64,000 bases of DNA from an uncultured Candidatus Saccharibacteria bacterium (GCA_964496425.1 CAZBZO010000004.1:23118-87117); one strand, 5' to 3'; positions 2,912-58,681 are shown, counted from the stretch's first letter. Notes: generated by a model not told the origin, from the letters alone. Program-made: numbers and translations.

Positions 2912-2980
2912 AAGCCAACTCTAGCGCACTCTTTGACTCTATGCAACGAGAGGAGTAGAGTTAAGAAAAACTTCCTTACC

Positions 2981-3901
2981 ATGAAAACAAACATCATAAT
3001 CCTGCTATGGGTGGTGTTTGCTTTCGCAACACTACCACAGAAAACTTGGAGCCAGACTCCATTTTGCGATTACCTTTGCAAGAAACAAGACTCATTGCCT
3101 ATCCGCGAGAAAACGCTATACATAATTTGGCACACAACTGAGGGCCCTTGGCCCGGATGTCGTAATTGGTTGATGCGTGGACCGTGGGGACACTTTGTTA
3201 CCACAAAAACAGGATTTACTGAACGAATCGTAGAAGACGAGCGCTTCGTAGAGCATGCTGGTCATTCTATGTACAATGGAGACACCGCAATATCTAGATT
3301 CTCCGTGAGTATTGAATTCGTACAATATCAGGGTGATACTATTACCCAAGCCCAATACGATAGTGGGATGGTTCTCACTAAATACTTACAGATGAAATAC
3401 TGTATACCTGACAGTTGTGTTTTAATCCATCCAGCAGTGGCATGTTTCTATCCCGGTGACTTCAAATCTAAAAAACGAGTAAGAGGCCGTACAATAATAG
3501 AGACTTATACGACCTACGCTCGAGGACGGAAGCAAGACGCATATGAATTCGCAAATACTGCTTCAAGAGCACGACTGGGAGTCGGACCAGGACCCAGATA
3601 CGATTTGGATGTAGTTATGGGAAGAATGGTTCCTGATGCAGCGCAAGAGAGACTTTTGTATGGAAAAAATTTCTCTATTGCAGAGCTTATAATGTTAAGA
3701 GAAATGATAGAGTATAGGGAAAATCCCATAGCTGTATCAACTTTATCTGTACGGAAATACGAAATATGTAATACCGTCTTGTGGGAAAATGAAATCATTT
3801 TCCAAAAACCCAAAAAGGCATTCTCGATTGATACATATTTCAAAAGAGAAGATGAAATCGGTATTACGGGAAAAGCATTTTTAAAATTTCTTAGCGAGTA
3901 A
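2981..3901 (+). CDS. secreted N-acetylmuramoyl-L-alanine amidase (Amidase_2/PGRP-type domain)
   Basis: The ORF runs from 2900, but the signal peptide MKTNIIILLWVVFAFATLPQKTWSQ begins at 2981. IIWHTTEGPW..., H...IEFV resemble the amidase_2 Zn-binding core. Confidence 0.65.
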   Translation: MKTNIIILLWVVFAFATLPQKTWSQTPFCDYLCKKQDSLPIREKTLYIIWHTTEGPWPGCRNWLMRGPWGHFVTTKTGFTERIVEDERFVEHAGHSMYNGDTAISRFSVSIEFVQYQGDTITQAQYDSGMVLTKYLQMKYCIPDSCVLIHPAVACFYPGDFKSKKRVRGRTIIETYTTYARGRKQDAYEFANTASRARLGVGPGPRYDLDVVMGRMVPDAAQERLLYGKNFSIAELIMLREMIEYRENPIAVSTLSVRKYEICNTVLWENEIIFQKPKKAFSIDTYFKREDEIGITGKAFLKFLSE

Positions 3902-3933
3902 ATCAGGCTTCGGTCAGATTTACTCGCTTTTTC
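3894..3933. terminator. perfect 11-bp hairpin (gcgagtaaatc/gatttactcgc) followed by tttttc, lying between the convergent amidase and trmD genes
   Basis: Inverted repeat read directly from the sequence. The first arm overlaps the amidase stop codon. Confidence 0.6.
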
Positions 3934-4606
3934 TTTGCTTCCACTTCTCTATTTCCTTATGATTCCCGGAAAGCAGTACTTTCGGCACGCGGTACTTTTT
4001 TTTATTATGAACCAGAATTTCTGGTCGAGTATAAAATTCACTTGATGAGATGCGTTCTTCTTCGAGCGATTCGAATTTGCCCAGTACTCCTGGAATCTGG
4101 CGAGATAGTGTATCAATCAGTATCATAGCTGGCAATTCCCCTCCTGTTACAACATAGTCCCCGATGGAAATTTTTTTAGTCTTCAATATTTTGTCCACAC
4201 GCGCATCAATACCTTCATAGCGGCCGCATAAAAGAATAATATCGGTATGTTTTTTTGCCACATTTTTTACATACGCGGTGGTGAGTTTTTCCCCTGAAGG
4301 TACGAAATTAACGATGAGCGTTTTTGATTTTTTATTTTTTTTAATTCTTTTTTCGATATGCTCTACCGCTTTCAAAATCGGCTCGGCGCGCATGATCATC
4401 CCCGGTCCCCCGCCAAACGGCCGATCATCCACGATCGCAGAAATGTTGCCGTCTGGCCAGACCTTTTTGTACTTGCCCACCACAAACTTCCGTGGATTGT
4501 AAAAATCCACCTTGATTTTTTTTTCTCGTATGGCCCGACCAATAATCGATTCTTTCAAATAGGAATCAAAGGATTCCGGGAAAATAGTAACTATATGATA
4601 GTTCAT
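3920..4606 (-). CDS. trmD: tRNA (guanine37-N1)-methyltransferase TrmD
   Basis: MNYHIVTIFPE..., ...GGGPGM..., LLCGRYEGIDARV, GDYVVTGGELPA. The ORF extends to 4669, but the conserved N-terminus starts at the Met at 4606. Confidence 0.9.
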   Translation of the reverse strand: MNYHIVTIFPESFDSYLKESIIGRAIREKKIKVDFYNPRKFVVGKYKKVWPDGNISAIVDDRPFGGGPGMIMRAEPILKAVEHIEKRIKKNKKSKTLIVNFVPSGEKLTTAYVKNVAKKHTDIILLCGRYEGIDARVDKILKTKKISIGDYVVTGGELPAMILIDTLSRQIPGVLGKFESLEEERISSSEFYTRPEILVHNKKKYRVPKVLLSGNHKEIEKWKQRKSE

Positions 4607-4650
4607 AGGCTGTAGGGTATAGGTTTTAGCAAAAAATGCAAATTGGATAG

Positions 4651-4684
4651 TACGACAAAAGCCGCCCATGGGCGGCTTTTGTCT
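4651..4684 (-). terminator. hairpin aaaagccgccc-atg-ggcggctttt between the KH gene and trmD; possibly an attenuator or internal terminator
   Basis: GC stem with T-runs readable on either strand. Confidence 0.45.
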
Positions 4685-4696
4685 TCACTTTAAAAC

Positions 4697-5017
4697 TTAA
4701 ATTCCTTTCAAATCTGCCATTGCTTCGTCCACTGAACTAGATGATGGTGCAGCACTCCCACTCATGTGCGTGCTTCCTTCTGGCTCGTTGATCTTCAGAT
4801 TCACGCGAGCATTGTTTTTCATGCCAATGACGCGAAGAAGCGTGCGGATCGCCTTGGCAGTGTTGCCCATGCGTCCGATGACCTTGCCCATGTCGGCAGG
4901 ATTTACAGAAAGCGTGATAAGTACACCCATTTCATCCACTGTGCGATCAATCTTTACATCAGAAGGGTTATCGACGAGAGATTTGACCACGTACTCAAGA
5001 AATGCTTTATCTTCCAT
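4697..5017 (-). CDS. KH-domain RNA-binding protein (KhpA/YlqC-like)
   Basis: 106 aa with VIGRMGNTAKAIRTL, the KH GXXG-like core. It sits in the canonical position between rpsP and trmD. Confidence 0.8.
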   Translation of the reverse strand: MEDKAFLEYVVKSLVDNPSDVKIDRTVDEMGVLITLSVNPADMGKVIGRMGNTAKAIRTLLRVIGMKNNARVNLKINEPEGSTHMSGSAAPSSSSVDEAMADLKGI

Positions 5018-5079
5018 ATGTTTGCTGTACGGTCTATTTGTATTTTAATGCAGCGTTTCGACTTCGACTGCTTATAGCT

Positions 5080-5108
5080 AGTATAGTATGACCAAAAGCG
5101 AGTGTCAA
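5080..5108 (-). promoter_or_regulatory. sigma70 consensus promoter TTGACA-17-TATACT, reading toward the KH-trmD genes
   Basis: On the minus strand: ttgaca (5108-5103), a 17-nt spacer, tatact (5085-5080). It lies about 55 nt upstream of the KH start codon. Confidence 0.6.
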
Positions 5109-5138
5109 TAAAAAAGAAGCAGTCATATCGACTGCTTC
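5107..5138 (-). terminator. rho-independent terminator after the propeller-repeat gene (gaagcagtc-atatc-gactgcttc, then a U-run on the minus strand)
   Basis: 9-bp stem. The minus-strand downstream sequence is cttttttatt. Confidence 0.6.
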
Positions 5139-5158
5139 TTCCTCTACAAAAGAGGATT

Positions 5159-6712
5159 TTACATTTTCTGAATTTTCTTACTTACATATGTACCATTATT
5201 TTTAATAATACTGATGATATACATACCAGGCAAAAAATTCTTTGTGTTAAAGTTATTACCTTCTATCCCCACCAACCGAACTCGTCCTATCACGTCGGTT
5301 ATTGTTACCATTTGGAAGTTACCTTCAATCACAATATAGTCGGTAAAGGGATTTGGGTAAACCTTATAATCACTATTAGTAGTAGAAATAACACCGGTTG
5401 GAATTGAACGTTCAAGCATGGCAACCCATATATCGTACTCACCATGGTTGCCTGTAACATCACCGTCAATCGACATACTATGTCCTGCGACGATATAGGA
5501 TCCATAGGAAGTTTGTGTAATTACACATATTCCCCCTTCGACTTCTGTGCCACCGAGGCATTTCTGCCATTCTATATCTCCATCGATAGTGAGTTTCAAT
5601 ATCCAAAAATCATACCAGCCGTGATTACCAGACACATCGCCGTCATTGGACATAGTTGCTCCCGCAACAATATATCCGCCATCAATCGTTTGCTTTACCG
5701 AAAACGATTGGTCGTCCGACACACCACCGAGTGATTTTTGCCATTGGATATTTCCCACTGTATCAAGCTTCACAATCCAATAATCATTACCCCCGTGATT
5801 GCCGGTAACATCAAAGTTAAGGGAACTAGCGTTGCCAGATAAAATATATCCTCCGTCAATCGTTTGTTCAATTGAGTATCCTGCAACATCAATGTCGCTC
5901 CCGCCAAGGCACTTCTGCCACTGTATTACTCCAACCGAATCCAATTTCACCACCCAATAATCAGAGCTGCCATGAATTCCGGAAACATCACCGTTTGATG
6001 AATACGTCCAACCACTGGCGATGTATCCACCATCTTTTGTCTGCCGAATACAAAAAGGGAAATCCACAGATGTGCCTCCCAATGATTTTTGCCATTCGAT
6101 GTTCCCTACGGCATCTAACTTGGCTATCCAATAATCCAAATTGCCGTGGTTGCCAGAAACATCACCATCATTCGAAGCTGAAGCTGAAACTACGATGTAA
6201 CCACCGTCATTCGTTTGGCGAACAGAAAAGGACTCTTCGTCTTCGGTGCCACCAAGGCATTTCTGCCATTCAATAATTCCAAGCGTGTTAATTTTAACGA
6301 CCCAGGTATCGGTCATGCCGTGGTTACTTGAGACATCAAAATCATTAGAGTAACTGAAGCCCGATACAATAAATCCTCCATCAGCAGTCTCTGTAATAGA
6401 GCGTGCTTGATCGGAGCCGCTGCCACCCAAAGACACCTGCCAGATCAGATTTCCACTGGTATCAATTTTTACAATCCAGAAATCATGATCTCCATGGTTA
6501 CCGGACACATCACCGTCATCTGAGTTGCTATAGCCGGCAAAAACGAAGTTGCCATCTGAGGTTGGAGTAAGTGCATACACCACCTCGATGCTACTCCCAC
6601 CAAAGGATTTTTCCCATTTGATTTCAGGCGCTTGCGCTTGTGCAAAATAAAAAGAAAAAATCAATGCCGCACAACTCATGGCTGTCAGCAGGAAATTGGA
6701 AAACTGTTTCAT
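5159..6712 (-). CDS. secreted repeat protein with about 9 tandem ~55-aa propeller-like repeats and a C-terminal T9SS type-A (Por) sorting domain
   Basis: Repeats of consensus W(Q/E)KSLGG(S/T)..D...SI.QT.DGGYI..G...S.DGDVSGNHG..D.W(V/I)VKLD..G.I. The C-terminus YKVYPNPFTDYIVIEG...VTITDVIGRVRL...FLPGMYIISI...NGTYVSKKIQK matches the T9SS CTD pattern. A signal peptide follows the Met at 6712. Confidence 0.75.
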   Translation of the reverse strand: MKQFSNFLLTAMSCAALIFSFYFAQAQAPEIKWEKSFGGSSIEVVYALTPTSDGNFVFAGYSNSDDGDVSGNHGDHDFWIVKIDTSGNLIWQVSLGGSGSDQARSITETADGGFIVSGFSYSNDFDVSSNHGMTDTWVVKINTLGIIEWQKCLGGTEDEESFSVRQTNDGGYIVVSASASNDGDVSGNHGNLDYWIAKLDAVGNIEWQKSLGGTSVDFPFCIRQTKDGGYIASGWTYSSNGDVSGIHGSSDYWVVKLDSVGVIQWQKCLGGSDIDVAGYSIEQTIDGGYILSGNASSLNFDVTGNHGGNDYWIVKLDTVGNIQWQKSLGGVSDDQSFSVKQTIDGGYIVAGATMSNDGDVSGNHGWYDFWILKLTIDGDIEWQKCLGGTEVEGGICVITQTSYGSYIVAGHSMSIDGDVTGNHGEYDIWVAMLERSIPTGVISTTNSDYKVYPNPFTDYIVIEGNFQMVTITDVIGRVRLVGIEGNNFNTKNFLPGMYIISIIKNNGTYVSKKIQKM

Positions 6713-6782
6713 ACGAACGTTTTTTGGTTTAATTTTTGAAGAAATAGAATTTGTCTCCCAAACCATACCACTCAAAACACAA

Positions 6783-6822
6783 AAGCGCAAGGCCGAGGGG
6801 CCGTGCGCTTTTGTTAGTATTT
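6783..6822. terminator. hairpin agcgcaaggcc-gagg-ggccgtgcgct flanked by A/T runs; a bidirectional terminator after rpsP
   Basis: Imperfect 10-bp GC stem with one mismatch. There is a T-run on both strands. Confidence 0.5.
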
Positions 6823-6831
6823 TTTTGATTA

Positions 6832-7137
6832 TTACGCTGCTTTCAATTCTTTGCGTTTCTTGGTTGGACTCTTGCGTGGAAGGACATTTTTCTTGCGGCC
6901 TTCAACGAGTTTTTTTGAAATGAGGAAATTCTGCATAGTATCCGAAGTCTGTGCGCCGACACTCATCCAATATTTGATGCGGTCTTCTTTTAAGGTCACT
7001 TCCCCTTTCTTTGGATCGTACGCACCGAGGATTTCCAAAAAGCGCCCACTTTTGGTGCTGTTTTTTGAGTCCGTCAGAACGACTCGAAATGAGGCTTCGT
7101 TCTTACGGCCAATGCGCTGCAATCTGATCATTAACAT
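6832..7137 (-). CDS. rpsP: 30S ribosomal protein S16
   Basis: MLMIRLQRIGRKNEASFRVVLTDSK...ILGAYDP, classic bS16. Confidence 0.95.
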   Translation of the reverse strand: MLMIRLQRIGRKNEASFRVVLTDSKNSTKSGRFLEILGAYDPKKGEVTLKEDRIKYWMSVGAQTSDTMQNFLISKKLVEGRKKNVLPRKSPTKKRKELKAA

Positions 7138-7143
7138 CCCGCT

Positions 7144-7173
7144 ATCTTACCAGAATGGGCTTGAAAGGTCAAC
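7144..7173 (-). promoter_or_regulatory. sigma70-like promoter TTGACC-17-TAAGAT ending 6 nt before the rpsP ATG, which implies a leaderless rpsP mRNA
   Basis: On the minus strand: ttgacc (7173-7168), a 17-nt spacer, taagat (7149-7144), then agcggg-ATG. Confidence 0.45.
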
Positions 7174-7290
7174 AGGCCCTTCTGGGATATAGCTTTAGGA
7201 GGCTACAGAGCTTTTTGCTATACTAGGAAAAGCATTTGTTTTAAGCAATGCTACGACATTATTATTAATACTATAAAAATTTATATAGAA

Positions 7291-8055
7291 ATGAAAACAC
7301 AAAAAATAGTTACATCGTTGATACTGGTAGCTTTCTTGGCAACTGGCATTTCGGTCGCCCAAGCAGAAACACCAGCCTTGGATAAAATGGTAGCGCCACA
7401 AAAGCCTACTCTTATGCCAAAGCCATATGAGAATCCATCTGTGATGGTTCCCAAAGATCGCCCAATGCCGACAAGTGCAAGTGGTGTTATGCCAGTAAAA
7501 GGTGGTATCAGCCATCCGTTTGGGCAATTACCAGAAGTAGCAGAAGCCAATCGAGCTCGCGTACAGGCTATGATCGAAAGTCACAAAACAGAGATCACTG
7601 AACGACAAGACGCACTGAAAGCCAAACTTATTGAACACAGAGACCAATTGGCAGAGCGTTTTGGAGAAAAAAAGGCTGGAGAAATTGTACAGGTACGTGA
7701 AAATGTAGCTGAGCAATTTGGTGAAGTCTTGCTCAAACTCCGAAGTGCGGAAGAAAAGCTCGACAATCTACTCTCAATGCTTGAAGAACGCGGTATGGAT
7801 ACTGCAAGCAACCGTGCAGTATTTGAAACTGCCTCAAGTGATATCGCTGCAGCTGAAACCGCTATCGCCAATCTGCAAAATATCGCGGCAAGCGATACTG
7901 ACGGTGCAGCCACAGTAAAAGAAGCGGGTGCTCGCGCACGTACTGCTGTAGAAAAAGCAAAACAATCAACACTTGCTGCATTCACTGCAATCCGAACTCT
8001 TATTAGCGCCGAAGCTTCCGTGAAAACAAACACTGAAGCGACAGCAAGTAACTAA
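7291..8055 (+). CDS. secreted Ala-rich coiled-coil protein, unknown function
   Basis: Signal peptide MKTQKIVTSLILVAFLATGISVAQA, followed by helical heptad-like A/E/K-rich sequence. Confidence 0.6.
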   Translation: MKTQKIVTSLILVAFLATGISVAQAETPALDKMVAPQKPTLMPKPYENPSVMVPKDRPMPTSASGVMPVKGGISHPFGQLPEVAEANRARVQAMIESHKTEITERQDALKAKLIEHRDQLAERFGEKKAGEIVQVRENVAEQFGEVLLKLRSAEEKLDNLLSMLEERGMDTASNRAVFETASSDIAAAETAIANLQNIAASDTDGAATVKEAGARARTAVEKAKQSTLAAFTAIRTLISAEASVKTNTEATASN

Positions 8056-8343: not shown

Positions 8344-8360
8344 ACATTTTGTAAGTCTCA

Positions 8361-8390
8361 AAAAAGGCTCGTATGAGCCTTTTTTGTTTG
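8361..8390 (+). terminator. rho-independent terminator (aggctc-gtat-gagcct followed by tttttg)
   Basis: Hairpin plus T-run immediately after the stop at 8343. Confidence 0.6.
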
Positions 8391-8437
8391 CCTTAAAACA
8401 TACAAATACCCTAGAAAAGATATGTTATGATAGAAAA

Positions 8438-10360
8438 ATGAAGAATACTAAAGAGCCAAAAAAGAGCGCTCCGGCTTTGATTGGCACTATTTCTCTTACC
8501 AGTAAAGGCGTCGGCTATGTCCGTCTTTCTGCAAGTCTTGAGGATGATATTGAGATTGAAAATAGATTTTTGCGCACGGCACTTCACGGCGACACCATAG
8601 AACTTCTCCTTCACCCACGGCGACCCAAACAGCGTACGACCGGCGAAGTGGTCAGTATAATTTCTCGAGCCAAGGCAGGCTTTGCAGGTACACTGATCGT
8701 TGAGGGCGACACTCTTGTCCTCGATGCGGACGACCAAAAACTTTACACCTCGATCTTGGTACCAAAAGCAAATCTTCATGGCGCCAAAGCAGGAGAGAAA
8801 GTATTCGTAAAAATTATTTCTTGGCAGGATCCAAAAAAACTACCCTTAGGAGAAGTCGCGCAAATATTGGGCGCGCCGGGCGAACATGAAGCTGAGATTG
8901 CGGCAATTTCGCTAGAAAAAGGATTCAATTCGCTTTTTCCCAAAGATGTCGTCGATGAATCAGAGCGGTTAGATCATAAGATGCCAGATATTTCTAGCCG
9001 CCGAGATTTTCGCACTACGCCGACCTTCACTATCGATCCGTTTGACGCCAAAGATTTTGACGATGCACTTTCAGTTCTCAAACTTCCAGACGGCAAATTT
9101 GAGATTGGTATCCATATTGCTGATGTGTCTCACTACGTGCGCCCAGGCAGTGCAATTGATAAAGAAGCATTTAAACGCGCAACATCGGTGTATCTTGTCG
9201 ATCGCACGATTCCCATGCTCCCAGAAATACTTTCCAACGATCTCGCAAGCCTGAAGCCTGATGTTGATCGCCTCACGATGAGTGCAGTGTTTATCATGGA
9301 TATACATGGCGCCATTCACGGAGAATGGTACGGCAAGAGTATTATCCATTCCGATAAGCGTTTTACCTATGAAGGAGCGCAAGAAATACTTGATGCAAAG
9401 CAAGGTGAATTCTATAGCGAGCTTCATACATTAAACAAACTTGCCAAAATCCTTGAAAAAAACAGACTCGCCGACGGCGCTTTAGTGCTTGAAACAGAGG
9501 AAGTAAAATTCGAACTCGATAAAAAAGGAGTACCGATTGCTGTCTACAAAAAAGTCCGTGGCGATACGCACAAGCTGGTAGAAGAATTCATGCTCCTTGC
9601 GAACCGAAAGGTAGCTGAGTTCATTACAAAAAAATCAAAGAAAAATATTTTTATTTATCGTGTCCATGACCTGCCGGACCCTGACAAACTTGCTGATTTA
9701 AAGAGCTTTTTGAGCCAGCTCGGTCATAAGATTTCGGGAACAGGAAAAGTCTTGCTGGCAAAAGACTTGAGCACCTTTTTAAAACGCATTGCGAGCCATC
9801 CAGAGAAAAGTATGATTGAAATGACGATCGTGCGCTCGATGGCCAAAGCCGTATACTCAACGACCAACATCGGCCACTATGGCTTAGCTTTCAAACACTA
9901 CACGCACTTTACTTCCCCAATCCGCCGGTATCCGGATTTGGCTGTGCATCGGCTCTTGGAAAGTTATCTTTCAGGTCATTCACCCAAACCAGAATCAATC
10001 AAAACCTACGACGAGATCTCACGACATTCATCGGTACAAGAAAAGAAAGCTGCTGAAGCCGAACGTGCCAGCGTGAAATATAAGCAAGTAGAATACATGA
10101 GCAAACGCATCGGCACTACACTTACTGGTACTATTTCTGGGGTGACCGATTGGGGGCTCTATGTGGAAGAAAAAGAAACAAAATCAGAAGGCATGATTCC
10201 TATCCGCAACTTGGGCGCCGAATATTTCACATTCGATAAGACAAAAATGGCTATTATCGGACAAAAAACTCGTACCCGCTATCGCTTGGGTGACACGATC
10301 CGCATTAGTGTTGCCGAAGCGAACCTCGGTACCAAAACGATCACTTATGCGCTTGCTTAA
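8438..10360 (+). CDS. rnr: ribonuclease R (RNase II/R family 3'-5' exoribonuclease)
   Basis: RNB-domain motifs (IDPFDAKDFDDALS, HIADVSHYV, LVEEFMLLANRKVA, GHYGLAFKHYTHFTSPIRRYPDLAVHR) and a C-terminal S1 domain. The start is taken at the ATG at 8438, because the upstream in-frame region overlaps the previous gene. Confidence 0.9.
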   Translation: MKNTKEPKKSAPALIGTISLTSKGVGYVRLSASLEDDIEIENRFLRTALHGDTIELLLHPRRPKQRTTGEVVSIISRAKAGFAGTLIVEGDTLVLDADDQKLYTSILVPKANLHGAKAGEKVFVKIISWQDPKKLPLGEVAQILGAPGEHEAEIAAISLEKGFNSLFPKDVVDESERLDHKMPDISSRRDFRTTPTFTIDPFDAKDFDDALSVLKLPDGKFEIGIHIADVSHYVRPGSAIDKEAFKRATSVYLVDRTIPMLPEILSNDLASLKPDVDRLTMSAVFIMDIHGAIHGEWYGKSIIHSDKRFTYEGAQEILDAKQGEFYSELHTLNKLAKILEKNRLADGALVLETEEVKFELDKKGVPIAVYKKVRGDTHKLVEEFMLLANRKVAEFITKKSKKNIFIYRVHDLPDPDKLADLKSFLSQLGHKISGTGKVLLAKDLSTFLKRIASHPEKSMIEMTIVRSMAKAVYSTTNIGHYGLAFKHYTHFTSPIRRYPDLAVHRLLESYLSGHSPKPESIKTYDEISRHSSVQEKKAAEAERASVKYKQVEYMSKRIGTTLTGTISGVTDWGLYVEEKETKSEGMIPIRNLGAEYFTFDKTKMAIIGQKTRTRYRLGDTIRISVAEANLGTKTITYALA

Positions 10361-24900: not shown

Positions 24901-25221
24901 CTAAGAATTAAGTAGATTAAATTTTAAGCGATACTTACATGAGTCTTCAACGATGTGAAGATCATCATGTGTTGTACTGCTCTCAGCGGTACACATATTA
25001 ATTCTTTGTATGGGGCATTCTTTTGCTACCGAAAAAATAATAACTGAAAATACAATATTTGAATACTCACAAGTTTCACAAATAGATTCGCCGACTACTC
25101 CTGGACTGCACGCACAATCTGATTTTTGACAAGTAAAAAATTTAGGTTTCCCTGTTACAAGACCAGGGAGAACAAACCCGATACATATTATAACAGCTAG
25201 GACAATAATAAATATTTTCAT
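24901..25221 (-). CDS. small secreted cysteine-rich protein
   Basis: Signal peptide or TM segment, then 9 Cys in 80 aa. Confidence 0.45.
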   Translation of the reverse strand: MKIFIIVLAVIICIGFVLPGLVTGKPKFFTCQKSDCACSPGVVGESICETCEYSNIVFSVIIFSVAKECPIQRINMCTAESSTTHDDLHIVEDSCKYRLKFNLLNS

Positions 25222-31607: not shown

Positions 31608-32351
31608 ATGGAAAACAAATTTAAAAACATAATAGAAAATAACCAATTTAATACAAATTTTAAGAGATTAAGAAATTTTCTGGTTGCTTCGTTAGCTGTT
31701 TTTTCACTTAATAAAGCGGAAGGTCAAGCACTCAAAAAAGATTTGATGATAAGCCCAGAACAACAAATTTCAATTATAAATGAGATACGCACCATTGATA
31801 GTTTGGTGCTAGAGCTCACAGATCGTTTTGGTAATAAACAATCATTGACTGAATTGGTAAACGAAAAGGAAAAAAGCCTCGCGGGTCAATATGGAGAAGA
31901 TTATGTGAATAAATATGTATCTGCGACAGACCCTAGATTTGTTGTTTACAGATACGGAACTAATATAGAAGGTCCAGTTGAATTTAAAGATGAAAATTTT
32001 CCCGCTGATTATCCTATAAAACAATATCGATATTACGGTTCGCATGGTAATGATATTTATATAGGTGATAAAAAATGTGAAATCGTTTGTAGTTATGCGT
32101 ATGAATCATCAACCGATTCTACAAAACAAAACATAGTAAATGTTATAGATTATTCGGGAGATATCCCACTTACTGAAAAGTGTAACGATACTTTAAATTT
32201 TGCAAAGTTCGGCTATACTGAATCTGAATCTACAGATGTATCATTAAATAATAAAATGTCTGTTCATAACTATACATATGAGGATTTGATTGAGAATCTT
32301 AACAATGTAAATGCTTTAATAAAATTAGAAATTTCTAAAAAAAGTAAATAG
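31608..32351 (+). CDS. hypothetical secreted protein encoded in an AT-rich insert
   Basis: 247 aa with an N-terminal hydrophobic segment LVASLAVFSLNKAEGQ. The region 31460-32460 is visibly AT-richer than its flanks. Confidence 0.5.
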   Translation: MENKFKNIIENNQFNTNFKRLRNFLVASLAVFSLNKAEGQALKKDLMISPEQQISIINEIRTIDSLVLELTDRFGNKQSLTELVNEKEKSLAGQYGEDYVNKYVSATDPRFVVYRYGTNIEGPVEFKDENFPADYPIKQYRYYGSHGNDIYIGDKKCEIVCSYAYESSTDSTKQNIVNVIDYSGDIPLTEKCNDTLNFAKFGYTESESTDVSLNNKMSVHNYTYEDLIENLNNVNALIKLEISKKSK

Positions 32352-42832: not shown

Positions 42833-43648
42833 TTAGATAGGCAGAAAACAACCATCTTCTTTTCTAAAAGAATCTCCGTTCACTAAATTTAGTACTACAG
42901 TTATATCCTTGCATTCATCATCACCCGGTCTACCTTCTTTGTAAGTGCCGAACAAGACAGGCGTGCCTGGATCAAAACCGTAAAAGGGTTCCCCAAAATA
43001 TAAAAAGTCAGTTTGAATACCGTAACTTTTAATTAGTTCGCCTCCTATCTTAGATTTAAGATTTTCCAACGCACTAGCAAAATCAGAGAAATAAAGATGC
43101 TCTATGGGAATAATGTTTAATGGTGGGTCACTTTTTACTATTTTATCTCTCATCATTAGCAAAAAAGAATCGTAGGAAATTGGTTGATTTTTAATATTAT
43201 TGAAGTTTGGGTCCGTATCTTTTTGGTAATAATGGAAATAATAATTTGAGATTAATTCATCTCTTCTTTTTATCGTCATCCAGTCAATATTCAAAAAATA
43301 ATTTATTTCTACAAAATCAGTACTATTAGGCTGATCCACGAAAACTTTTTCTATTTTAATATGATCTTTAATATAGTTTTCTGTTACGCCGTAATTTTCC
43401 TGTAAATACCTCTTCCAATACGATATGTAGGTTTCACAATGGATGTCGGGGCAGGTAAAATCAAGCAAATTAAGGTACGTTTCATTGTTCTCTGCCACGA
43501 AAGCAGTGATTTTATCTTCTAAAGAACCGGATTTGACTTGTATAGGGAATGGAGATAGTCCAACCTTCTCCAATAGAAATACTTGAAAACCTATTATCAC
43601 AATAGCAATAATTGTAATTACTAAAAATATTTTTGTTGATTTTTTCAT
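42833..43648 (-). CDS. N-terminally anchored hypothetical protein, AT-rich gene
   Basis: 271 aa with an N-terminal TM segment. The sequence is N/K/Y/F-rich. Confidence 0.5.
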
Positions 43649-53927: not shown

Positions 53928-54073
53928 GTTTATAGTATAACGCTAATCAATCACATAATCTTTACACCATTTCCCCACGAAACGCCTCGTTGACGTAGGC
54001 ACCTCCAAAAGATTAGATGATGAATGGTGGCTGACCCAATTCCTCAATCCTCCAACACTTTTTTAAAATAATT

Positions 54074-54523
54074 TTAGTGACTCGTAATATAGAGCGCCAA
54101 TAGCACTAGTCCACCCCACCAGCCAATATCGGAAAACACCAAACTTACCATAATCTTTCTCTGTAACGAATCCGGTAAAAGTTCCGTCTGTCGTCCTTCG
54201 CGTTCTCGCGCTAATAAAAAAGGACTTACATACAAAGACAAAAACAATCCGTTCAAAATCAAAATGCCTGCAATAATCGCGTGATAAAAAGGAATTCCGG
54301 AAAATGGTTCATTGCGATACAAAATAATTCCTCCGATGATGGCCAAGAAAATACCGATCCAGATCAGAGGTTTGGTAACTTTGTGTGTCCGTATTGTCGC
54401 TTCAGTCCAGTACGATGACTTTCTGCCAAGAAATCCGTGAATATCAATTACCGTCACGGCTCCGAGACCGATAATAAATCCAGCAATGAGGACAAATAAC
54501 CCAATGAAATCTAAAGTAATCAT
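54074..54523 (-). CDS. hypothetical membrane protein
   Basis: 149 aa with 4 TM segments. Confidence 0.5.
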   Translation of the reverse strand: MITLDFIGLFVLIAGFIIGLGAVTVIDIHGFLGRKSSYWTEATIRTHKVTKPLIWIGIFLAIIGGIILYRNEPFSGIPFYHAIIAGILILNGLFLSLYVSPFLLAREREGRQTELLPDSLQRKIMVSLVFSDIGWWGGLVLLALYITSH

Positions 54524-54927
54524 TATCTATTTAAATACGTAATAGTTAACTGCAAGCACGTAGCAAATGTTCCCCAGAGTAAATACGGGATGTTGGCGTA
54601 GACAACCCAGCGCAGTGTTGGTACAGCGTGCCAGAGACTATAGAGTGCCCAGATGAGTGTACCGAGGACGAGTAGTATATCGATGGATGCCAGAAGATTA
54701 TTTTTGAGCCCAAATTGTATCGGTGTGAAAGCGAAATTGAAAAGGAGGTTGAGCGCAAATGGTAGAGCCACGATCCAGGGAATCTGCTTGGTGAACGCTT
54801 GATAGAAGACGGTACCGAAAGAAATGGCGATAATCACATAGAGCACCGTCCACACCGGCCCAAAGAGCCAGCTTGGAGGCGCCCATGATGGTTTAATAAG
54901 TTGTGAGTACCAGTTGTATGTGGTCAT
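54523..54927 (-). CDS. tspO: TspO/MBR tryptophan-rich sensory protein
   Basis: KPSWAPPSWLFGPVWTVLY... Confidence 0.85.
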   Translation of the reverse strand: MTTYNWYSQLIKPSWAPPSWLFGPVWTVLYVIIAISFGTVFYQAFTKQIPWIVALPFALNLLFNFAFTPIQFGLKNNLLASIDILLVLGTLIWALYSLWHAVPTLRWVVYANIPYLLWGTFATCLQLTITYLNR

Positions 54928-54931
54928 GGGA

Positions 54932-55792
54932 TTATTCTAAGATTTTATAATTTGGTATTTTATAGTTTTCTTTTAACCAAAGAAAGTAATCATCGTTAGC
55001 TTTAGGATTTAAGTGTTTTAACAACTGCTTACCAACAGGAGAAAGTCCAAAGAATCCAGGCATACTAATTTTTAGTGTATTTACATCCTCTGGTGTAGTC
55101 GGTGAAAATAAAATGACTTTATCAAAGTAAACAGTCTTAAAATTTTTCTTCTCAGGATTTTCCATTGATTCGGTCATATCATTTGGCAAAAATAGTGCAA
55201 GACTTTGCAATAACTGAAGACTCCCAAAGTCCACTGCAAGTTCATTCATAAATCCTTTAGCATTTTCGGGTAAAGAAAATAAGTCTTGTGGTACCTGATA
55301 ACCATTTACTAATAAACTGCATATTTTTTCAAATAACTCCAGCTCACTTTTGCCAAGCATTTTAATAATTTGGAGCATGCTCATTGAGTAAGTGCCGGGC
55401 GCGTTATATTCTCCTGCAAGAATCTTTGCTATCAATTCTTGCATTTCGTCATTTGAAATTCCTTTGGCATGATCAAGAAACCCCCAAAAAACATCGTTAT
55501 CCATGCCGACCTCGCTAGGTTTTGAAGAATCAATATACTTTGTTGCTCTTGCTCCAATGTTTATTAGGTTTGTGTTTGACCTAAAAGCAGAAACATATTG
55601 AATAGCCAGACCTTTTTCTTTTGCATCGTCGTACCCATCAAGAATATGTTTTTTGATTACCCCACCCTGTGCATTCCATTCGCTTATTTTAAAACCAAGC
55701 AACTTATCAATCACTGTCGAAAATAATGGTGTGTTGGCTACTTTAGTGGAGTTTTCAATTGCAGTAGTAAGTGCTGTTGTTGGATCAATCAT
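54932..55792 (-). CDS. hypothetical protein co-transcribed with the Type IIG RM gene (4-nt gap)
   Basis: 286 aa with no motif recognised. The gene is AT-rich. Confidence 0.6.
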   Translation of the reverse strand: MIDPTTALTTAIENSTKVANTPLFSTVIDKLLGFKISEWNAQGGVIKKHILDGYDDAKEKGLAIQYVSAFRSNTNLINIGARATKYIDSSKPSEVGMDNDVFWGFLDHAKGISNDEMQELIAKILAGEYNAPGTYSMSMLQIIKMLGKSELELFEKICSLLVNGYQVPQDLFSLPENAKGFMNELAVDFGSLQLLQSLALFLPNDMTESMENPEKKNFKTVYFDKVILFSPTTPEDVNTLKISMPGFFGLSPVGKQLLKHLNPKANDDYFLWLKENYKIPNYKILE

Positions 55793-55796
55793 ATAT

Positions 55797-58211
55797 TTAT
55801 TTTTTCAAAAACCCTAATTCATATACTTGCGGTTCTAGTTTTTCAGAAAGTTTTTTATATACATTTTCAAAATCAACAAAGCTAACTTTTGTAAAATCAC
55901 CACTGTCATTTCTTTTCTTGAGTGCATTCCTTATTTGATACCATCCCACATCTGGTCGATTTAATTTTAATTCATCTCTCACGCTACGTTCATCAGTATG
56001 TGCGAAATATGATTGCCACAACTTCTTACCTTCTTCGAGTGCAGCACGAGCTTCTGCGGAAAATTCTTTTCCCTGCATATACTCAACCATAAAGTTGGAC
56101 TCGAAACGGTCAGGAGCTCCAACTTCTTCTTCAGTAAATGGTATAAAATGATTTACAATTGACCACTTCTTATCATTCCACTCCAAATCATTAGCACTCG
56201 CTGTTAGATTGCTTCCATTAAATAGCATCCAAATCAAACAATCATTTTTGAATTCGTCAGTAAGTTCGCCAGTTGGTTGTAAAAATTGATCACGATCATT
56301 TTGCCATGTAGGTTTAACAATACGGCGCACGGTTAGAATGATTGCAGTTTTTAATAAGTTGTCTGCATTTACGTAAAAACCATCGCCCTGGCTGTATACA
56401 GACGAAAACAGCACTGTCTGGTTTACATTTTGCATGTCACTTGCTTTAACCCAAAAGTAGCCTATCGCACCGTCGGACCATTTTGACAACCGCACTTTAC
56501 TTGTAGTGGGAGTAACCGCTGATTTTAGGGGGACAACTTCAGTGTCATTAGGTTTTGGTCGTTGCACCCAAAGATTTAAGTAAGTTGATGACGGTAAATT
56601 ATAGAATACTTTCTCTCCAATTGGACGCGCCTCTTTATCAAGAACATCAACTGTTATTTTTGAGATTTGACTGAGATGTCCATCACCATGGCTTGTTCGC
56701 CATACAAGAAAACCAATTGGGAAGTTACCCTTCAGGCCTTCAAAAGATTTACTGTGAACAATGAAACCGCCAAGATAGTCAGCATCCCATTGCTTACGAA
56801 ATTCCTCAAAATTAGGAGCATTTACATATTTCAGCTTACTAAACATTGCAAGAGTTGCCTGTGGTATTTCTTTTGCAATTCGAGTAGCAAACTGAGTAAA
56901 CAATTCTTGGCTTGCTTTACCATACCCAGTCATACCAACCTCTCCATACTTAGTTTTTGCAACATTATCTTTACCTTCTTTACCAAGCGTACTTCCTGCT
57001 TCCGCATAAGGTGGATTAATCAGCACCAAAATTTTCTTTCCACTCTTTATTACCTGCTGTAGTGCTTCTGGGATTTTATTCGTTATGCTGTAGTCAATTT
57101 TTCCGTCATCAGTGATGTCATCGTTGAGATAGTCGTATTGAAATTTTGTAGCTGCAACACATGTCTTGGTAGCACGCATAACATTAATATCTGGAGCATC
57201 AAGCGTGCTCATATAAATATTGCGCGGATTCGAATGCTTTACTTCAAGGTTTCCTACACCACAGCACATATCCCAAACTATGTATTCTTGTTGCCAATTG
57301 TCTCCCAATACTTCAGTGAGTTTGTCATATGCCTTATCTACCACATGAAGAGGTGTATAGTATGCCCCCTTAAAACTTCGTTCATCAACTGGAATCAAAC
57401 TATCACGTCGTTCAAGTAGATAGTCACGATATTCCTGTTTTGGTGGCTTGTCATAGATTGCCCAAAACTTCCGATACCCCTCTTTGTTTCCTAATTCATA
57501 AATAACCCCTCCAAGAGCAAATACGGCTGCCCCATTTTTATGCAACAACTCAGCGGGAAGATTTTGATGAGTAGACACCGTACCGTCATGCATAATATCA
57601 GCAAAGAAAAGGAGGGCATAATCTTCAGGATTTACACCCTTTATTTCTTGTCCGATCATTGCAACCCACTTATCAAAAACTTGCTTCAGATTATCTGGAG
57701 TAATTTGTGTACGAACTATATCTCCTGTTTTGATAGCACTTTTTATGGCCGCTAGAAATTCTTTTTCGTGTGTAGAAATCTTATAAGAGACGAAATGCGC
57801 ACCAATGTATGCGGAAACAATATCAAGAGCTTCTTGGGTATAGCTACTCGCAGATTTACCCCATTTTATAATTTTCTTTTCAAGCAATGGAAGAGCATCT
57901 TCAGTCTTCATAATTGCAGCTTTTTCAGTATCAATGACACACAGAAAAGGTGGAATTTTTTCTCCTCGATCAAGGGCAGCTTGAATGTAATGCAAAAGCT
58001 GTGTGAACATTTCATATGTTGTGGTATTGCTTTTATCTTTTGCTTCAAACCATACTTCATCCGTTTGGATGTCAATCAGGTTTTTATGAAAACCTTTAAG
58101 ACCAATGGCTTTAATATAAGCGTCTTTGACGTCTTCCTCACTTTTTGCTTTCTTTAATGTTTCGTAGAGAGTCATACATTTATAATTTGATGGCTGAATA
58201 AGTTTTTCCAA
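55797..58211 (-). CDS. Type IIG restriction-modification enzyme, MmeI-like (N-terminal PD-ExK nuclease, gamma-class N6-adenine MTase, C-terminal specificity domain)
   Basis: N-terminus LID(47)...E(56)AK(58) fits a D-x8/9-E-x-K nuclease motif. MTase motif X GAYYTPLHVV (aa 282), motif I WDMCCGVGNL, motif IV LINPPYAEAG, then about 350 aa of C-terminal domain. The gene is visibly AT-rich. Confidence 0.7.
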   Translation of the reverse strand: MEKLIQPSNYKCMTLYETLKKAKSEEDVKDAYIKAIGLKGFHKNLIDIQTDEVWFEAKDKSNTTTYEMFTQLLHYIQAALDRGEKIPPFLCVIDTEKAAIMKTEDALPLLEKKIIKWGKSASSYTQEALDIVSAYIGAHFVSYKISTHEKEFLAAIKSAIKTGDIVRTQITPDNLKQVFDKWVAMIGQEIKGVNPEDYALLFFADIMHDGTVSTHQNLPAELLHKNGAAVFALGGVIYELGNKEGYRKFWAIYDKPPKQEYRDYLLERRDSLIPVDERSFKGAYYTPLHVVDKAYDKLTEVLGDNWQQEYIVWDMCCGVGNLEVKHSNPRNIYMSTLDAPDINVMRATKTCVAATKFQYDYLNDDITDDGKIDYSITNKIPEALQQVIKSGKKILVLINPPYAEAGSTLGKEGKDNVAKTKYGEVGMTGYGKASQELFTQFATRIAKEIPQATLAMFSKLKYVNAPNFEEFRKQWDADYLGGFIVHSKSFEGLKGNFPIGFLVWRTSHGDGHLSQISKITVDVLDKEARPIGEKVFYNLPSSTYLNLWVQRPKPNDTEVVPLKSAVTPTTSKVRLSKWSDGAIGYFWVKASDMQNVNQTVLFSSVYSQGDGFYVNADNLLKTAIILTVRRIVKPTWQNDRDQFLQPTGELTDEFKNDCLIWMLFNGSNLTASANDLEWNDKKWSIVNHFIPFTEEEVGAPDRFESNFMVEYMQGKEFSAEARAALEEGKKLWQSYFAHTDERSVRDELKLNRPDVGWYQIRNALKKRNDSGDFTKVSFVDFENVYKKLSEKLEPQVYELGFLKK

Positions 58212-58284
58212 AATCGTGCGACAATATTAGTCGAAAAATACCACATTTTAAAGGTTTTTTCAAGACAACAGACTATTACTTTAC

Positions 58285-58313
58285 TTGACTTTTGGGCATA
58301 TTTGTGCTATTAT
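58285..58313 (+). promoter_or_regulatory. sigma70 promoter TTGACT-17-TATTAT
   Basis: ttgact (58285-58290), a 17-nt spacer, tattat (58308-58313), upstream of the ORF at 58386. Confidence 0.55.
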
Positions 58314-58323
58314 ATAAGAGAAA

Positions 58324-58369
58324 GGTTAGAAAACGCCTGGGCTTTAAGGAGCCTACACGTTTTCTAACC
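58324..58369 (+). promoter_or_regulatory. perfect 12-bp inverted repeat ggttagaaaacg/cgttttctaacc with a 22-nt spacer, in the leader of the 58386 ORF; an operator or leader hairpin
   Basis: Read directly from the sequence. It lies between the promoter and the start codon, and no T-run follows it. Confidence 0.5.
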
Positions 58370-58385
58370 TAAACCCTTTCTTTTC

Positions 58386-58625
58386 ATGAGACCATTCTTT
58401 CACCTTTTCATGACGAATCACAGGTGGTTCGTAGGAACATTATTTGTCTTGTTTATTTTATTTTTGTTTTTCTGGGTAGCATTCTTCCCTTCTTCCTTAC
58501 AGGAATCATGGAACCGATTTATGCTCCTTTTGCAAAATATTTTATATGCGACATTAGCAGCAGGAGTGATAGTTGGTATTTGGAGATGGATTCTATTTCC
58601 TAAGGGAAAGAAAAATCCGCATTAG
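58386..58625 (+). CDS. small membrane protein (2 TM segments)
   Basis: 79 aa. It has its own promoter, and the terminator hairpin at 58647-58681 follows. Confidence 0.45.
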   Translation: MRPFFHLFMTNHRWFVGTLFVLFILFLFFWVAFFPSSLQESWNRFMLLLQNILYATLAAGVIVGIWRWILFPKGKKNPH

Positions 58626-58646
58626 CACAAAAAAAATTGTGCTCAA

Positions 58647-58681
58647 AGGATTCTGTTAATTAATAACGGAATCCTTTTTCT
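58647..58681 (+). terminator. hairpin aggattc...gaatcct followed by ttttt
   Basis: 7-bp stem with an AT-rich loop. A second hairpin gcacaa-a8-ttgtgc lies just upstream. Confidence 0.5.

Follow-up and report, generated by a model that had tools for sequence, protein, structure and literature searches.

A probable Type IIG/IIL-like restriction-modification enzyme from a large unnamed family at a strain-variable locus of Candidatus Saccharibacteria

Genes and predicted domains at the locus

The stretch of DNA analyzed here (64,000 nucleotides from an uncultured Candidatus Saccharibacteria bacterium, GCA_964496425.1 CAZBZO010000004.1:23118-87117; hereafter the window) contains two adjacent open reading frames (ORFs) on the minus strand. 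An initial annotation, made from the sequence alone, had described them as an MmeI-like Type IIG restriction-modification (R-M) enzyme and a co-transcribed partner without a recognizable domain, probably acquired together. Both ORFs were recovered where it had placed them, separated by 4 nt: the larger spans 55797..58211 and counts 804 aa from a TTG codon, and the smaller (54932..55792) encodes 286 aa. Our results suggest that the larger gene likely encodes a self-contained bifunctional R-M enzyme of the Type IIG/IIL kind, which belongs to a large family left unnamed in databases and carries a swappable cassette, and that the adjoining gene, with its DUF2806 domain, is a separate gene of the abortive infection (Abi) type.

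The start of the larger gene had to be revised. Homologues of its product are about 792 aa long, and DNA similarity to 82 other loci starts exactly at ATG 58175 and ends at the stop codon; the true start is therefore this ATG and not TTG 58211. The resulting coding sequence, a predicted nuclease-methyltransferase fusion, covers 55797..58175 (792 aa, stop codon TAA at 55797-55799, codons verified). Residues are numbered on the 792-aa protein throughout, and adding 12 gives the earlier 804-aa numbering, in which D35, E44, and K46 were D47, E56, and K58.

Along the protein we found, in the order initially claimed, a D-x8-E-x-K motif (DIQTDEVWFEAK), GAYYTP (methyltransferase motif X), DMCCGVGNL (motif I), and NPPY (motif IV). 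In an alignment of 83 family members, each 25-35% identical to the query, the nuclease-motif residues E13, D35, E44, and K46 were invariant and Q59 was kept in 82 sequences. Among the methyltransferase (MTase) columns, motif X was invariant at G270 and T274, motif I at D302 and G306, and motif IV at N387 and P389; P388 of the motif IV pattern N-P-P-Y/F was kept in 82 of the 83. Since these key residues do not vary among such distant relatives, the motifs stand far beyond chance. The gamma-class consensus used was GxF/YF/YTP for motif X, DxxxGxG for motif I, and NPPY/F for motif IV; the protein shows the order X, I, IV followed by a target recognition domain (TRD), as is characteristic of gamma-class N6-adenine MTases, and its weak matches to N6_Mtase, HsdM, and MTase_II fall on exactly these motifs.

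Five segments were delineated, all on the minus strand. The first (aa 1-100, 57876..58175) is a putative PD-(D/E)xK-type nuclease core, with E13 at 58137-58139, D35-x8-E44-x-K46 at 58038-58073, and Q59 at 57999-58001. An AlphaFold2 (AF2) model of aa 1-252 built from a diverse alignment (pLDDT 91.5, pTM 0.78) gave a helix at 13-24, strands at approximately 30-32, 35-37, and 41-45, a helix at 53-69, and strands at 77-81 and 85-90 (alpha-beta-beta-beta-alpha-beta). E13 opens the first helix, D35 and E44-x-K46 fall on two successive strands, and Q59 belongs to the helix after them, so that in the model the catalytic residues adopt the canonical PD-(D/E)xK arrangement. The second segment (aa 101-255, 57411..57875) is a spacer or connector for which AF2 predicts helices and beta-hairpins; the helical spacer of MmeI occupies the same position. 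The third (aa 256-392, 57000..57410) is the N-terminal half of the predicted gamma-class N6-adenine MTase and holds motif X at 57351-57368, motif I at 57246-57272, and motif IV at 57006-57017. The fourth (aa 393-620, 56316..56999) is an exchangeable specificity cassette, described below; it takes in the loop that follows motif IV, the MTase fold's C-terminal half, and a TRD-like region rich in beta structure. The last (aa 621-792, 55800..56315) is a conserved and, according to AF2, mainly helical domain with the motifs TWxNDRDQFLxP, NHFIPF, and DxGWYQIR. In two family alignments W624, D629, P634, F652, and N675 of this domain were invariant or nearly so, variation within the close subfamily was low, and its position is that of the C-terminal helical bundle of MmeI (PMC4833311). 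The C-terminal ~350 aa do not form a single TRD as had been proposed: aa 393-620 make up the variable block, and the remainder, aa 621-792, is conserved and helical.

The full-length AF2 model was of moderate quality (pLDDT 73). Its best Foldseek match was the MmeI-like Type IIL enzyme DrdV (E 3e-6, probability 1.0, ~770 aligned columns), followed by LlaBIII and LlaGI (Type ISP), CamA, BrxX/PglX, M.BseCI, M.TaqI, and BsaXI.

Direct assignment by sequence, attempted with single sequences and with profiles, returned only weak matches to MTase motifs. The 792-aa protein had no match in Pfam or NCBIfam, weak matches to MTase_II in PADLOC (E 3e-4), a DNA MTase as its best match in PHROGs (E 0.09), and nothing in a single-sequence search of the PDB. 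A profile of the 83 sequences searched against all PDB chains reached only motifs X to I of HsdM (E ~0.03) and neither MmeI nor DrdV. The Pfam MmeI_* and Eco57I models did not match the window protein at E <= 1 or any of ten distant members, and were absent among the 25 most-matched Pfam families of 58 diverse members, 17 of which weakly matched N6_Mtase.

An unnamed family and its specificity cassette

A word-indexed search retrieved at least 4,919 clusters (90% identity) related to the 792-aa protein. The top 120 clusters, with full-length identities of 70-85%, belonged to the candidate phyla radiation (CPR)/Patescibacteria and to Bacteroidota, and every one was named "hypothetical". When one genome per species was scanned, at least 575 carrier species from at least six phyla were found, and the 80 best carriers (66-82% identical) were Patescibacteria, Bacteroidota, Alpha-, Beta-, and Gammaproteobacteria, Campylobacterota, and Ignavibacteria. 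Cultured carriers include Paludibacter propionicigenes WB4, Kaistella gelatinilytica G5-32, Limnohabitans sp. Rim47, Fluviibacter phosphoraccumulans, and Acinetobacter SH20PTE14, and WP_233945584.1 and WP_187405719.1 are among the family's proteins. An exhaustive profile search yielded 2,307 representatives at 50% identity, and ten sampled branches of the family were unnamed or "hypothetical" in all sources.

Within the close subfamily, variation is concentrated in aa 391-420, 491-510, and 527-616, and the remainder of the protein is 80-96% identical between pairs. Identity of this backbone and identity of the variable module were essentially uncorrelated (Spearman 0.14). Specifically, the window protein and that of locus L005 share 94% of the backbone and 34% of the module, and the window protein and P0006 share 76% of the backbone and 91% of the module. 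The loop after motif IV co-varied with the module (rho 0.36, compared with 0.07 for the backbone). The closest gene pairs delimit the exchanged unit: P0014 and P0028 are identical over aa 1-392 and 621-792, with 101 of 102 differences located in aa 393-620, and identical backbones were seen together with modules that are 38% identical. The exchanged unit is therefore one contiguous block of ~228 aa (56316..56999), the edges of which lie just after NPPYAE and at the conserved RRxIKPTWxNDRDQ motif. DNA similarity to the window is lost around aa 528-620 in three loci (L005, L009, L015), and the modules of 189 sequences formed 48 clusters. Allelic substitution of recognition regions has been documented for Type IIG genes (PMC2853133, Furuta et al. 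2010), and diversification of specificity in the MmeI family rests on changes in the recognition region (PMC4833311). An identity of 70-85% across phyla had seemed odd for an enzyme with a TRD; this concern was resolved, since the scaffold carries the identity and the cassette is hypervariable.

Nuclease and MTase domains are under equal purifying selection. The ratio of nonsynonymous to synonymous variation (pN/pS) was 0.20 in the nuclease and 0.19 in the MTase, the median ranged from 0.16 to 0.20 over the nuclease, spacer, MTase, and C-terminal domains, with the spacer as the most constrained part (0.16), and it reached 0.41 in aa 481-620. The closest gene pairs are mosaics. In L011 and L070, over nuclease and spacer the synonymous divergence (dS) was 0.08-0.09 and the nonsynonymous divergence (dN) 0, and over aa 481-620 dS was ~2.0 and dN 0.34.

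Most family copies (78 of 81) were intact. Three copies (L022, L027, L031) each contained one in-frame TAA in an otherwise full-length, ~70%-identical gene, which reflects an assembly error or else a recent loss of function of the sort described for some MmeI homologues. Two of the intact copies, L080:6001-8382 and L083:6001-8436, contained 17 and 8 in-frame TGA codons, mostly aligned with glycine, and no other stops. This indicates, from the codon alignment, that these genes are intact and that their hosts use genetic code 25 (TGA = Gly), and since reassigned TGA codons have been acquired, the gene would have resided in these recoded hosts for a long time. The taxonomy labels of the two metagenome-assembled genomes ("Candidatus Peribacteria") may thus be wrong. 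Among the distant relatives, P0176 (1068 aa) has an N-terminal TIR domain (PF13676, E 2.6e-11) ahead of the complete architecture, and P0170 (1054 aa) has an LPD3 "polyvalent protein" domain inserted at approximately aa 585-682, in the region equivalent to the cassette.

Plasmids of 10-16 kb from Acinetobacter and Fluviibacter also carry the family gene as cargo, and more distant relatives occur on plasmids of Helicobacter and Lactobacillaceae. A phage origin of the family was considered and rejected, as the gene had no match in 50,697 phage records. Carriage on small non-mobilizable plasmids and the extremely wide horizontal spread as a bare ORF would fit a selfish addiction module, one that stabilizes plasmids or islets through post-segregational killing rather than protecting against phages. 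Such a module would use the same biochemistry and so be compatible with a bifunctional R-M enzyme, and frequent shuffling of specificity is explained more easily by selection from changing invaders; we therefore consider a purely selfish role highly improbable.

Neighboring genes and the strain-variable slot

In the regions within 6 kb on either side of 81 other family loci we detected no recurrent neighbor family and no second MTase. Same-strand neighbors closer than 30 nt were found downstream in 13 of 67 cases and upstream in 8 of 69, and distant branches of the family were likewise solitary. The neighbors were mixed and included housekeeping genes, Fic/SoFic, HEPN_AbiU2, PIN, HNH, AbiEi, Bro-N, and candidate systems reported by PADLOC. 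These surroundings bear on whether the protein could be one component of a PglX/BREX system, or of a Type ISP or Type I kind of system, and would depend on helicase, ATPase, or specificity partners from other genomic sites. The fold matches do include BrxX/PglX and Type ISP enzymes, and the best sequence similarity over motifs X to I is to the Type I subunit HsdM. Nevertheless, the protein has no helicase or ATPase domain, no partner gene is conserved in the 81 loci or in the distant branches, the gene travels alone on 10-kb plasmids, and it has its own nuclease motif, which PglX lacks. A role in such a multi-protein complex is accordingly hard to credit, and the solitary gene is better read as a self-sufficient enzyme.

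Some individual loci deserve description. At the locus of Paludibacter propionicigenes (L004), a Peptidase_M78 (ImmA/IrrE-type) and DUF4411 pair (6075-7756) lies directly upstream of the family gene. Downstream of it, at a distance of a few kb, are a SocA_Panacea/helix-turn-helix gene and a Lactamase_B gene of the anti-Pycsar-like kind. Together these genes suggest a small islet of defense or toxin-antitoxin genes. The CPR locus nearest to the window by synteny (L006) has a Zeta-toxin gene (3956-4672, PF06414, E 3e-40) 13 nt downstream of the family gene and, 4.4 kb further on, a D12-class Dam-type adenine methyltransferase (8345-9142). At L068:8959-9069 and L072:7898-7999, the final ~35 codons of the family gene (aa ~754-791) are present a second time, as a short duplicate 0.6-1.1 kb downstream of the intact gene. 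The ORFs between gene and duplicate (L068:8468-8830, minus strand, 120 aa; L072:6984-7658, 225 aa) are unrelated to the family and had no sequence match in the PDB, and the duplicates look like traces left when DNA was inserted or replaced at the gene's 3' end.

The 286-aa product of 54932..55792 does have a recognizable domain, DUF2806 (PF10987, E 2.6e-21, 76.9 bits against a cut-off of 24.5, model positions 14-218 of 221), contrary to the initial annotation. It is not a member of the Vibrio/Shewanella-type equivalog TIGR03899 (67.8 bits, below the cut-off of 155.65), and a PDB sequence search returned nothing. Its homologues formed 297 clusters (56-94% identity) from CPR and Bacteroidota.

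The initial annotation had put this gene forward as a co-transcribed partner, which could be a controller, an antitoxin-like protein, or a second defense component. A two-gene system in which DUF2806 is such a partner, or an obligate component, would be in keeping with the 4-nt gap, the shared strand, the absence of a terminator between the genes, and the AT-richness of both; wherever the contigs recovered from this organism extend past TspO on its upstream side (seven contigs), the pair is kept, and the Zeta-toxin gene of L006 shows a toxin-type gene in a similar position. The gene-neighborhood survey that the initial annotation had called for nevertheless found the two genes unlinked in most genomes: no DUF2806 homologue occurred within 6 kb of the family gene in any of the 81 other loci, no family member adjoined DUF2806 in any of seven other contexts, where DUF2806 always stood alone, and the pair was seen only in this organism. 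Furthermore, the same 4-nt spacing joins DUF2806 to the native TspO gene, and enzymes of the MmeI type need no partner. We therefore reject the idea of a partner and regard a two-gene system as very unlikely.

The other DUF2806 contexts were diverse, and several were defense islands. In L091 the gene belongs to a defense island with MmeI_Mtase/Eco57I, a T5orf172-ResIII helicase, Shedu SduA_C, and AAA_15/RloB; in L135 it lies 25 nt downstream of a pair of helix-turn-helix and Mrr_cat/NA-iREase1 genes, beside an IS1595 fragment; in L094 it adjoins ArdC and Type I HsdMS; and in L134 and L136 it is found among unrelated genes. In three CPR loci from two genomes (L092:3731-5867, L093:375-2511, and L133:4064-6861), DUF2806 was observed directly downstream of dnaX, the gene for DNA polymerase III gamma/tau, a recurring position that has nothing to do with defense islands. 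The one characterized relative is Belisama, reported to be a toxic, lysis-inducing anti-phage system consisting of a single DUF2806 gene, similar to Abi-alpha and derived from the chromosomal integron of Vibrio cholerae (bioRxiv 10.1101/2024.07.02.601686). On the one hand, the window protein resembles Belisama in matching PF10987 over nearly the whole domain and in being a stand-alone, horizontally moving gene that is often located among defense genes. On the other hand, it falls below the TIGR03899 cut-off and is at best a distant relative, its type occurs in CPR and Bacteroidota rather than in Pseudomonadota, and it does not lie in an integron cassette. By analogy, DUF2806 is probably an independently acquired, separately mobile, Belisama-like gene of single-gene Abi-type defense, which leaves the earlier suggestion of a second defense component plausible. 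The best reading of its co-transcription with the R-M gene, and equally with TspO, is compact packing of the genome. Of the single acquired unit initially proposed, the horizontal acquisition of the R-M gene stands, and the joint acquisition of the 286-aa gene probably does not.

A search for MmeI-family sequences with the MmeI_Mtase/Eco57I genes of L091 found only split systems of MTase and helicase (Type ISP-like). A three-gene set, in which a short gene of the MmeI_Mtase type and a methylase with an Eco57I domain are accompanied by a large helicase (T5orf172/ResIII or DEAD/DEAH), was present in L091:221-4889, on a CPR-like metagenome contig, and in L137, which corresponds to positions 2175-6989 of plasmid pDrdVI from Deinococcus wulumuqiensis NEB 479, the source strain of DrdV. 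This set looks like a split Type ISP-like system.

Comparison with a contig of a sister strain from the same metagenome (L097) revealed that both genes occupy a variable segment, 53934..58223, between an RDD-protein/promoter region and a GDSL-lipase gene. The segment holds the 792-aa gene, DUF2806, TspO, and a 149-aa membrane-protein gene. The L097 contig aligns collinearly with the window on both sides of it, up to 58224 at 78% identity and again from 53933 onward at 84-96%; homology ends ~25 nt before the 792-aa gene and restarts ~5 nt before the lipase ATG. In between, the cargo of L097 is a classical Type II R-M pair: an adenine methylase of the EcoRI family (PF13651, E 3e-123) and a GmrSD_N+HNH restriction enzyme with an end-to-end match to the PADLOC REase_II model (E 2e-144). 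A consensus scan located a promoter-like element (TTGAAA-17 nt-TATTTT, with a TG extension) on the minus strand at 58235..58263, and this element and its surroundings are kept in L097; we infer that it would be a resident host promoter driving whatever cargo occupies the slot. From these alignments the slot is read as a strain-variable R-M hotspot with alternative cargo behind a resident promoter. Unrelated R-M systems that substitute for each other at one locus have been documented (PMC2853133). As no tRNA, integrase, or att-like flanking repeat was found at the hotspot, the simplest account is that homologous recombination in the flanks exchanged the cargo. A search for an empty site with the exact TspO protein retrieved only contigs bearing the island, and a scan with the RDD gene retrieved L097.

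The compositional contrast on which the initial annotation drew is real but modest. The GC content of the 792-aa gene is 0.380 (z -1.3) and that of the 286-aa gene 0.347 (z -2.0), compared with 0.436 +/- 0.045 for the 56 ORFs of the window, among which they rank 7th and 4th lowest; GC at third codon positions (GC3) is ~0.29 in both and 0.42 in the average gene. Three ORFs are AT-richer still, at 31608-32351 (plus strand), 42833-43648 (minus), and 24901-25221 (minus), with GC contents of 0.30, 0.32, and 0.34 (z -3.1, -2.6, and -2.2). They had no Pfam match and may be further acquired genes.

Within the slot, TspO (54523-54927) starts 4 nt after the DUF2806 gene and overlaps the gene of the 149-aa membrane protein (54074-54523; together 54074..54927, minus strand). 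No terminator-like site was found on the minus strand among the 792-aa, DUF2806, TspO, and membrane-protein genes. TspO is compositionally native (GC3 0.545, z +1.6), and L006 has a TspO gene (74% identical) on the downstream side of the family gene, ~2.2 kb away from it; for these reasons TspO and the membrane-protein gene are probably native core genes, without a counterpart at this place in L097, that are co-transcribed with both acquired genes. On the other side of the resident promoter, a divergent promoter-like site on the plus strand (TTGACT-17-TATTAT, 10/12, TG-extended) precedes a hydrophobic 79-aa ORF (58386-58625) without a Pfam match, which is followed by a strong terminator-like hairpin at 58645-58677 (promoter-to-hairpin region 58285-58677). 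A 21-nt inverted repeat at 58323-58370, upstream of the start of this ORF at 58386, is kept in L097.

Proposed mode of action and significance

The MmeI family is defined by whole-length BLAST similarity (E < 1e-20; Morgan et al. 2009), and in Pfam terms by MmeI_N, MmeI_hel, MmeI_Mtase, MmeI_TRD, and MmeI_C. MmeI itself consists of a nuclease (1-155) with catalytic D70, E80, and K82, a helical spacer (156-300), a gamma-class MTase (301-620), a TRD (621-825), and C-terminal helices (826-919) (PMC4833311). Members of this family have no second MTase or conserved neighbor, methylate one strand, cut ~20/18 nt away, require two sites, and change specificity rapidly. The 792-aa protein resembles MmeI, NmeAIII, and DrdV (PDB 5HR4, 7LO5) in combining a predicted nuclease, spacer, gamma-class MTase, variable region, and C-terminal helices in one polypeptide and in this order, in having D-x8/9-E-x-K near the N-terminus, in being a solitary gene of overall similar design with a fast-changing specificity region, and in matching DrdV best by structure. 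It differs in lacking detectable sequence homology (the Pfam models are silent in 58 members and the profile misses MmeI and DrdV) and in its length, 792 aa as opposed to 919-1030 aa. The spacing of D...ExK is one residue shorter than in MmeI and the motif lies 35 residues nearer the N-terminus, the exchanged block starts right behind motif IV, so that half of the MTase fold belongs to it, and the C-terminal domain is longer (172 compared with ~94 aa) and strongly conserved. The protein thus shares with MmeI the D...E-x-K motif, the five-domain order, the stand-alone gene, and a diversified recognition region, but not the sequence similarity that defines the family, and for this reason it should not be filed as an MmeI-family member. 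The initial description as an MmeI-like Type IIG enzyme holds for the kind of enzyme, in view of motifs, folds, shuffling, and replacement of R-M pairs, and fails as a family assignment by sequence.

Likewise, the protein shares with Type IIG enzymes (BpuSI, Eco57I family) the fusion of nuclease and MTase, a common recognition domain, alleles that differ only there, and the substitution of different R-M systems at one locus (PMC2853133); it differs in that the Eco57I Pfam and PADLOC Type IIG models are unmatched and BpuSI lies outside the top 50 fold matches. Judged from the alignments, the general Type IIG design appears to be present, with both motif sets invariant in one polypeptide and a single variable block. 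The gamma-class N6-adenine MTases with a TaqI-type TRD (M.TaqI, M.BseCI, CamA), PglX/BrxX, and the Type ISP enzymes LlaGI/LlaBIII have in common with it the MTase-TRD fold and the motif order X-I-IV with NPPY. However, M.TaqI, CamA, and PglX are without an N-terminal nuclease, Type ISP enzymes have a helicase motor, and PglX needs BREX partners, none of which applies to the 792-aa protein. It very probably works like a Type IIL/IIG enzyme.

Three observations weigh against this reading and would suit an orphan or regulatory DNA adenine MTase, which methylates without restriction and keeps its N-terminal domain as an inactive structural or DNA-binding remnant. Direct sequence matches cover the MTase part only, the orphan MTase CamA is among the good fold matches, and the isolated N-terminal domain had no significant fold match (best Foldseek hit DrdV, E 0.04). 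Against an orphan MTase speak the invariance of E13, D35, E44, and K46, and near-invariance of Q59, at 25% identity and on the right secondary-structure elements, and a constraint on the nuclease equal to that on the MTase. In addition, cassette shuffling and R-M pair replacement in a hotspot are not normal for orphan MTases, and the MmeI homologues that lack the PD-ExK motif form, according to the MmeI literature, a separate set with conserved helicase neighbors, of which we saw none here. We therefore regard an orphan MTase as unlikely. The R-M reading is also favored by relatives fused to TIR or LPD3 domains and by neighbors such as Fic, AbiU2, PIN, and AbiEi.

As an R-M enzyme, the protein would act as follows. 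The cassette (aa 393-620) and the MTase core, modeled on MmeI and DrdV, would together bind an asymmetric DNA site, in which the gamma-class MTase would flip and N6-methylate an adenine and thereby mark host DNA, presumably on one strand. The N-terminal nuclease (E13, D35, E44, K46), tethered by the spacer, would cut unmethylated DNA at a distance, outside the site. Because each chain has one catalytic center, cutting probably needs two enzyme molecules, as in MmeI (PMC4833311). A cassette swap by recombination would alter restriction and protection together, and because one cassette would serve both activities, mosaic genes are expected. Both activities, an anti-phage role, and the function of DUF2806 are proposed here on the grounds of motifs, predicted folds, and comparison with known systems.

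A broader and more tentative interpretation, of which we remain doubtful, is that the family is a hitherto unrecognized, very large group of compact Type IIL-like enzymes, which either arrived at the MmeI-style architecture on their own or have diverged too far for sequence comparison to recognize them, and which are reprogrammed by exchange of the 228-aa cassette. In addition, the 3' end of the gene may be a docking place for small toxin or Abi genes, giving operons that "restrict first, abort second". The docking is hinted at by DUF2806 in the window, the Zeta toxin in L006, and the 3'-end remnants flanking ORFs in L068 and L072. If this interpretation were true, defense-annotation tools would miss a major R-M family, notably in CPR/Patescibacteria.

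What is new here is a very large unannotated sequence family; the kind of system is already known and conceptually not surprising. If the family is active, inventories of defense systems and methylomes would undercount R-M systems, especially in CPR/Patescibacteria and freshwater Bacteroidota, and the family would be an untapped source of restriction enzymes, with at least 48 cassette types in 189 close relatives whose scaffold hardly varies; natural frameworks of this kind have been used to engineer the specificity of MmeI. Gene pairs in which the backbone is identical and the cassette differs would then provide, given methylomes, a natural experiment for mapping residues to bases. The results on DUF2806 add examples from CPR and Bacteroidota to a family with only one tested member. 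Taken as a whole, the family of the 792-aa protein is valuable for enzyme discovery and for completing the annotation of defense systems and methylomes.

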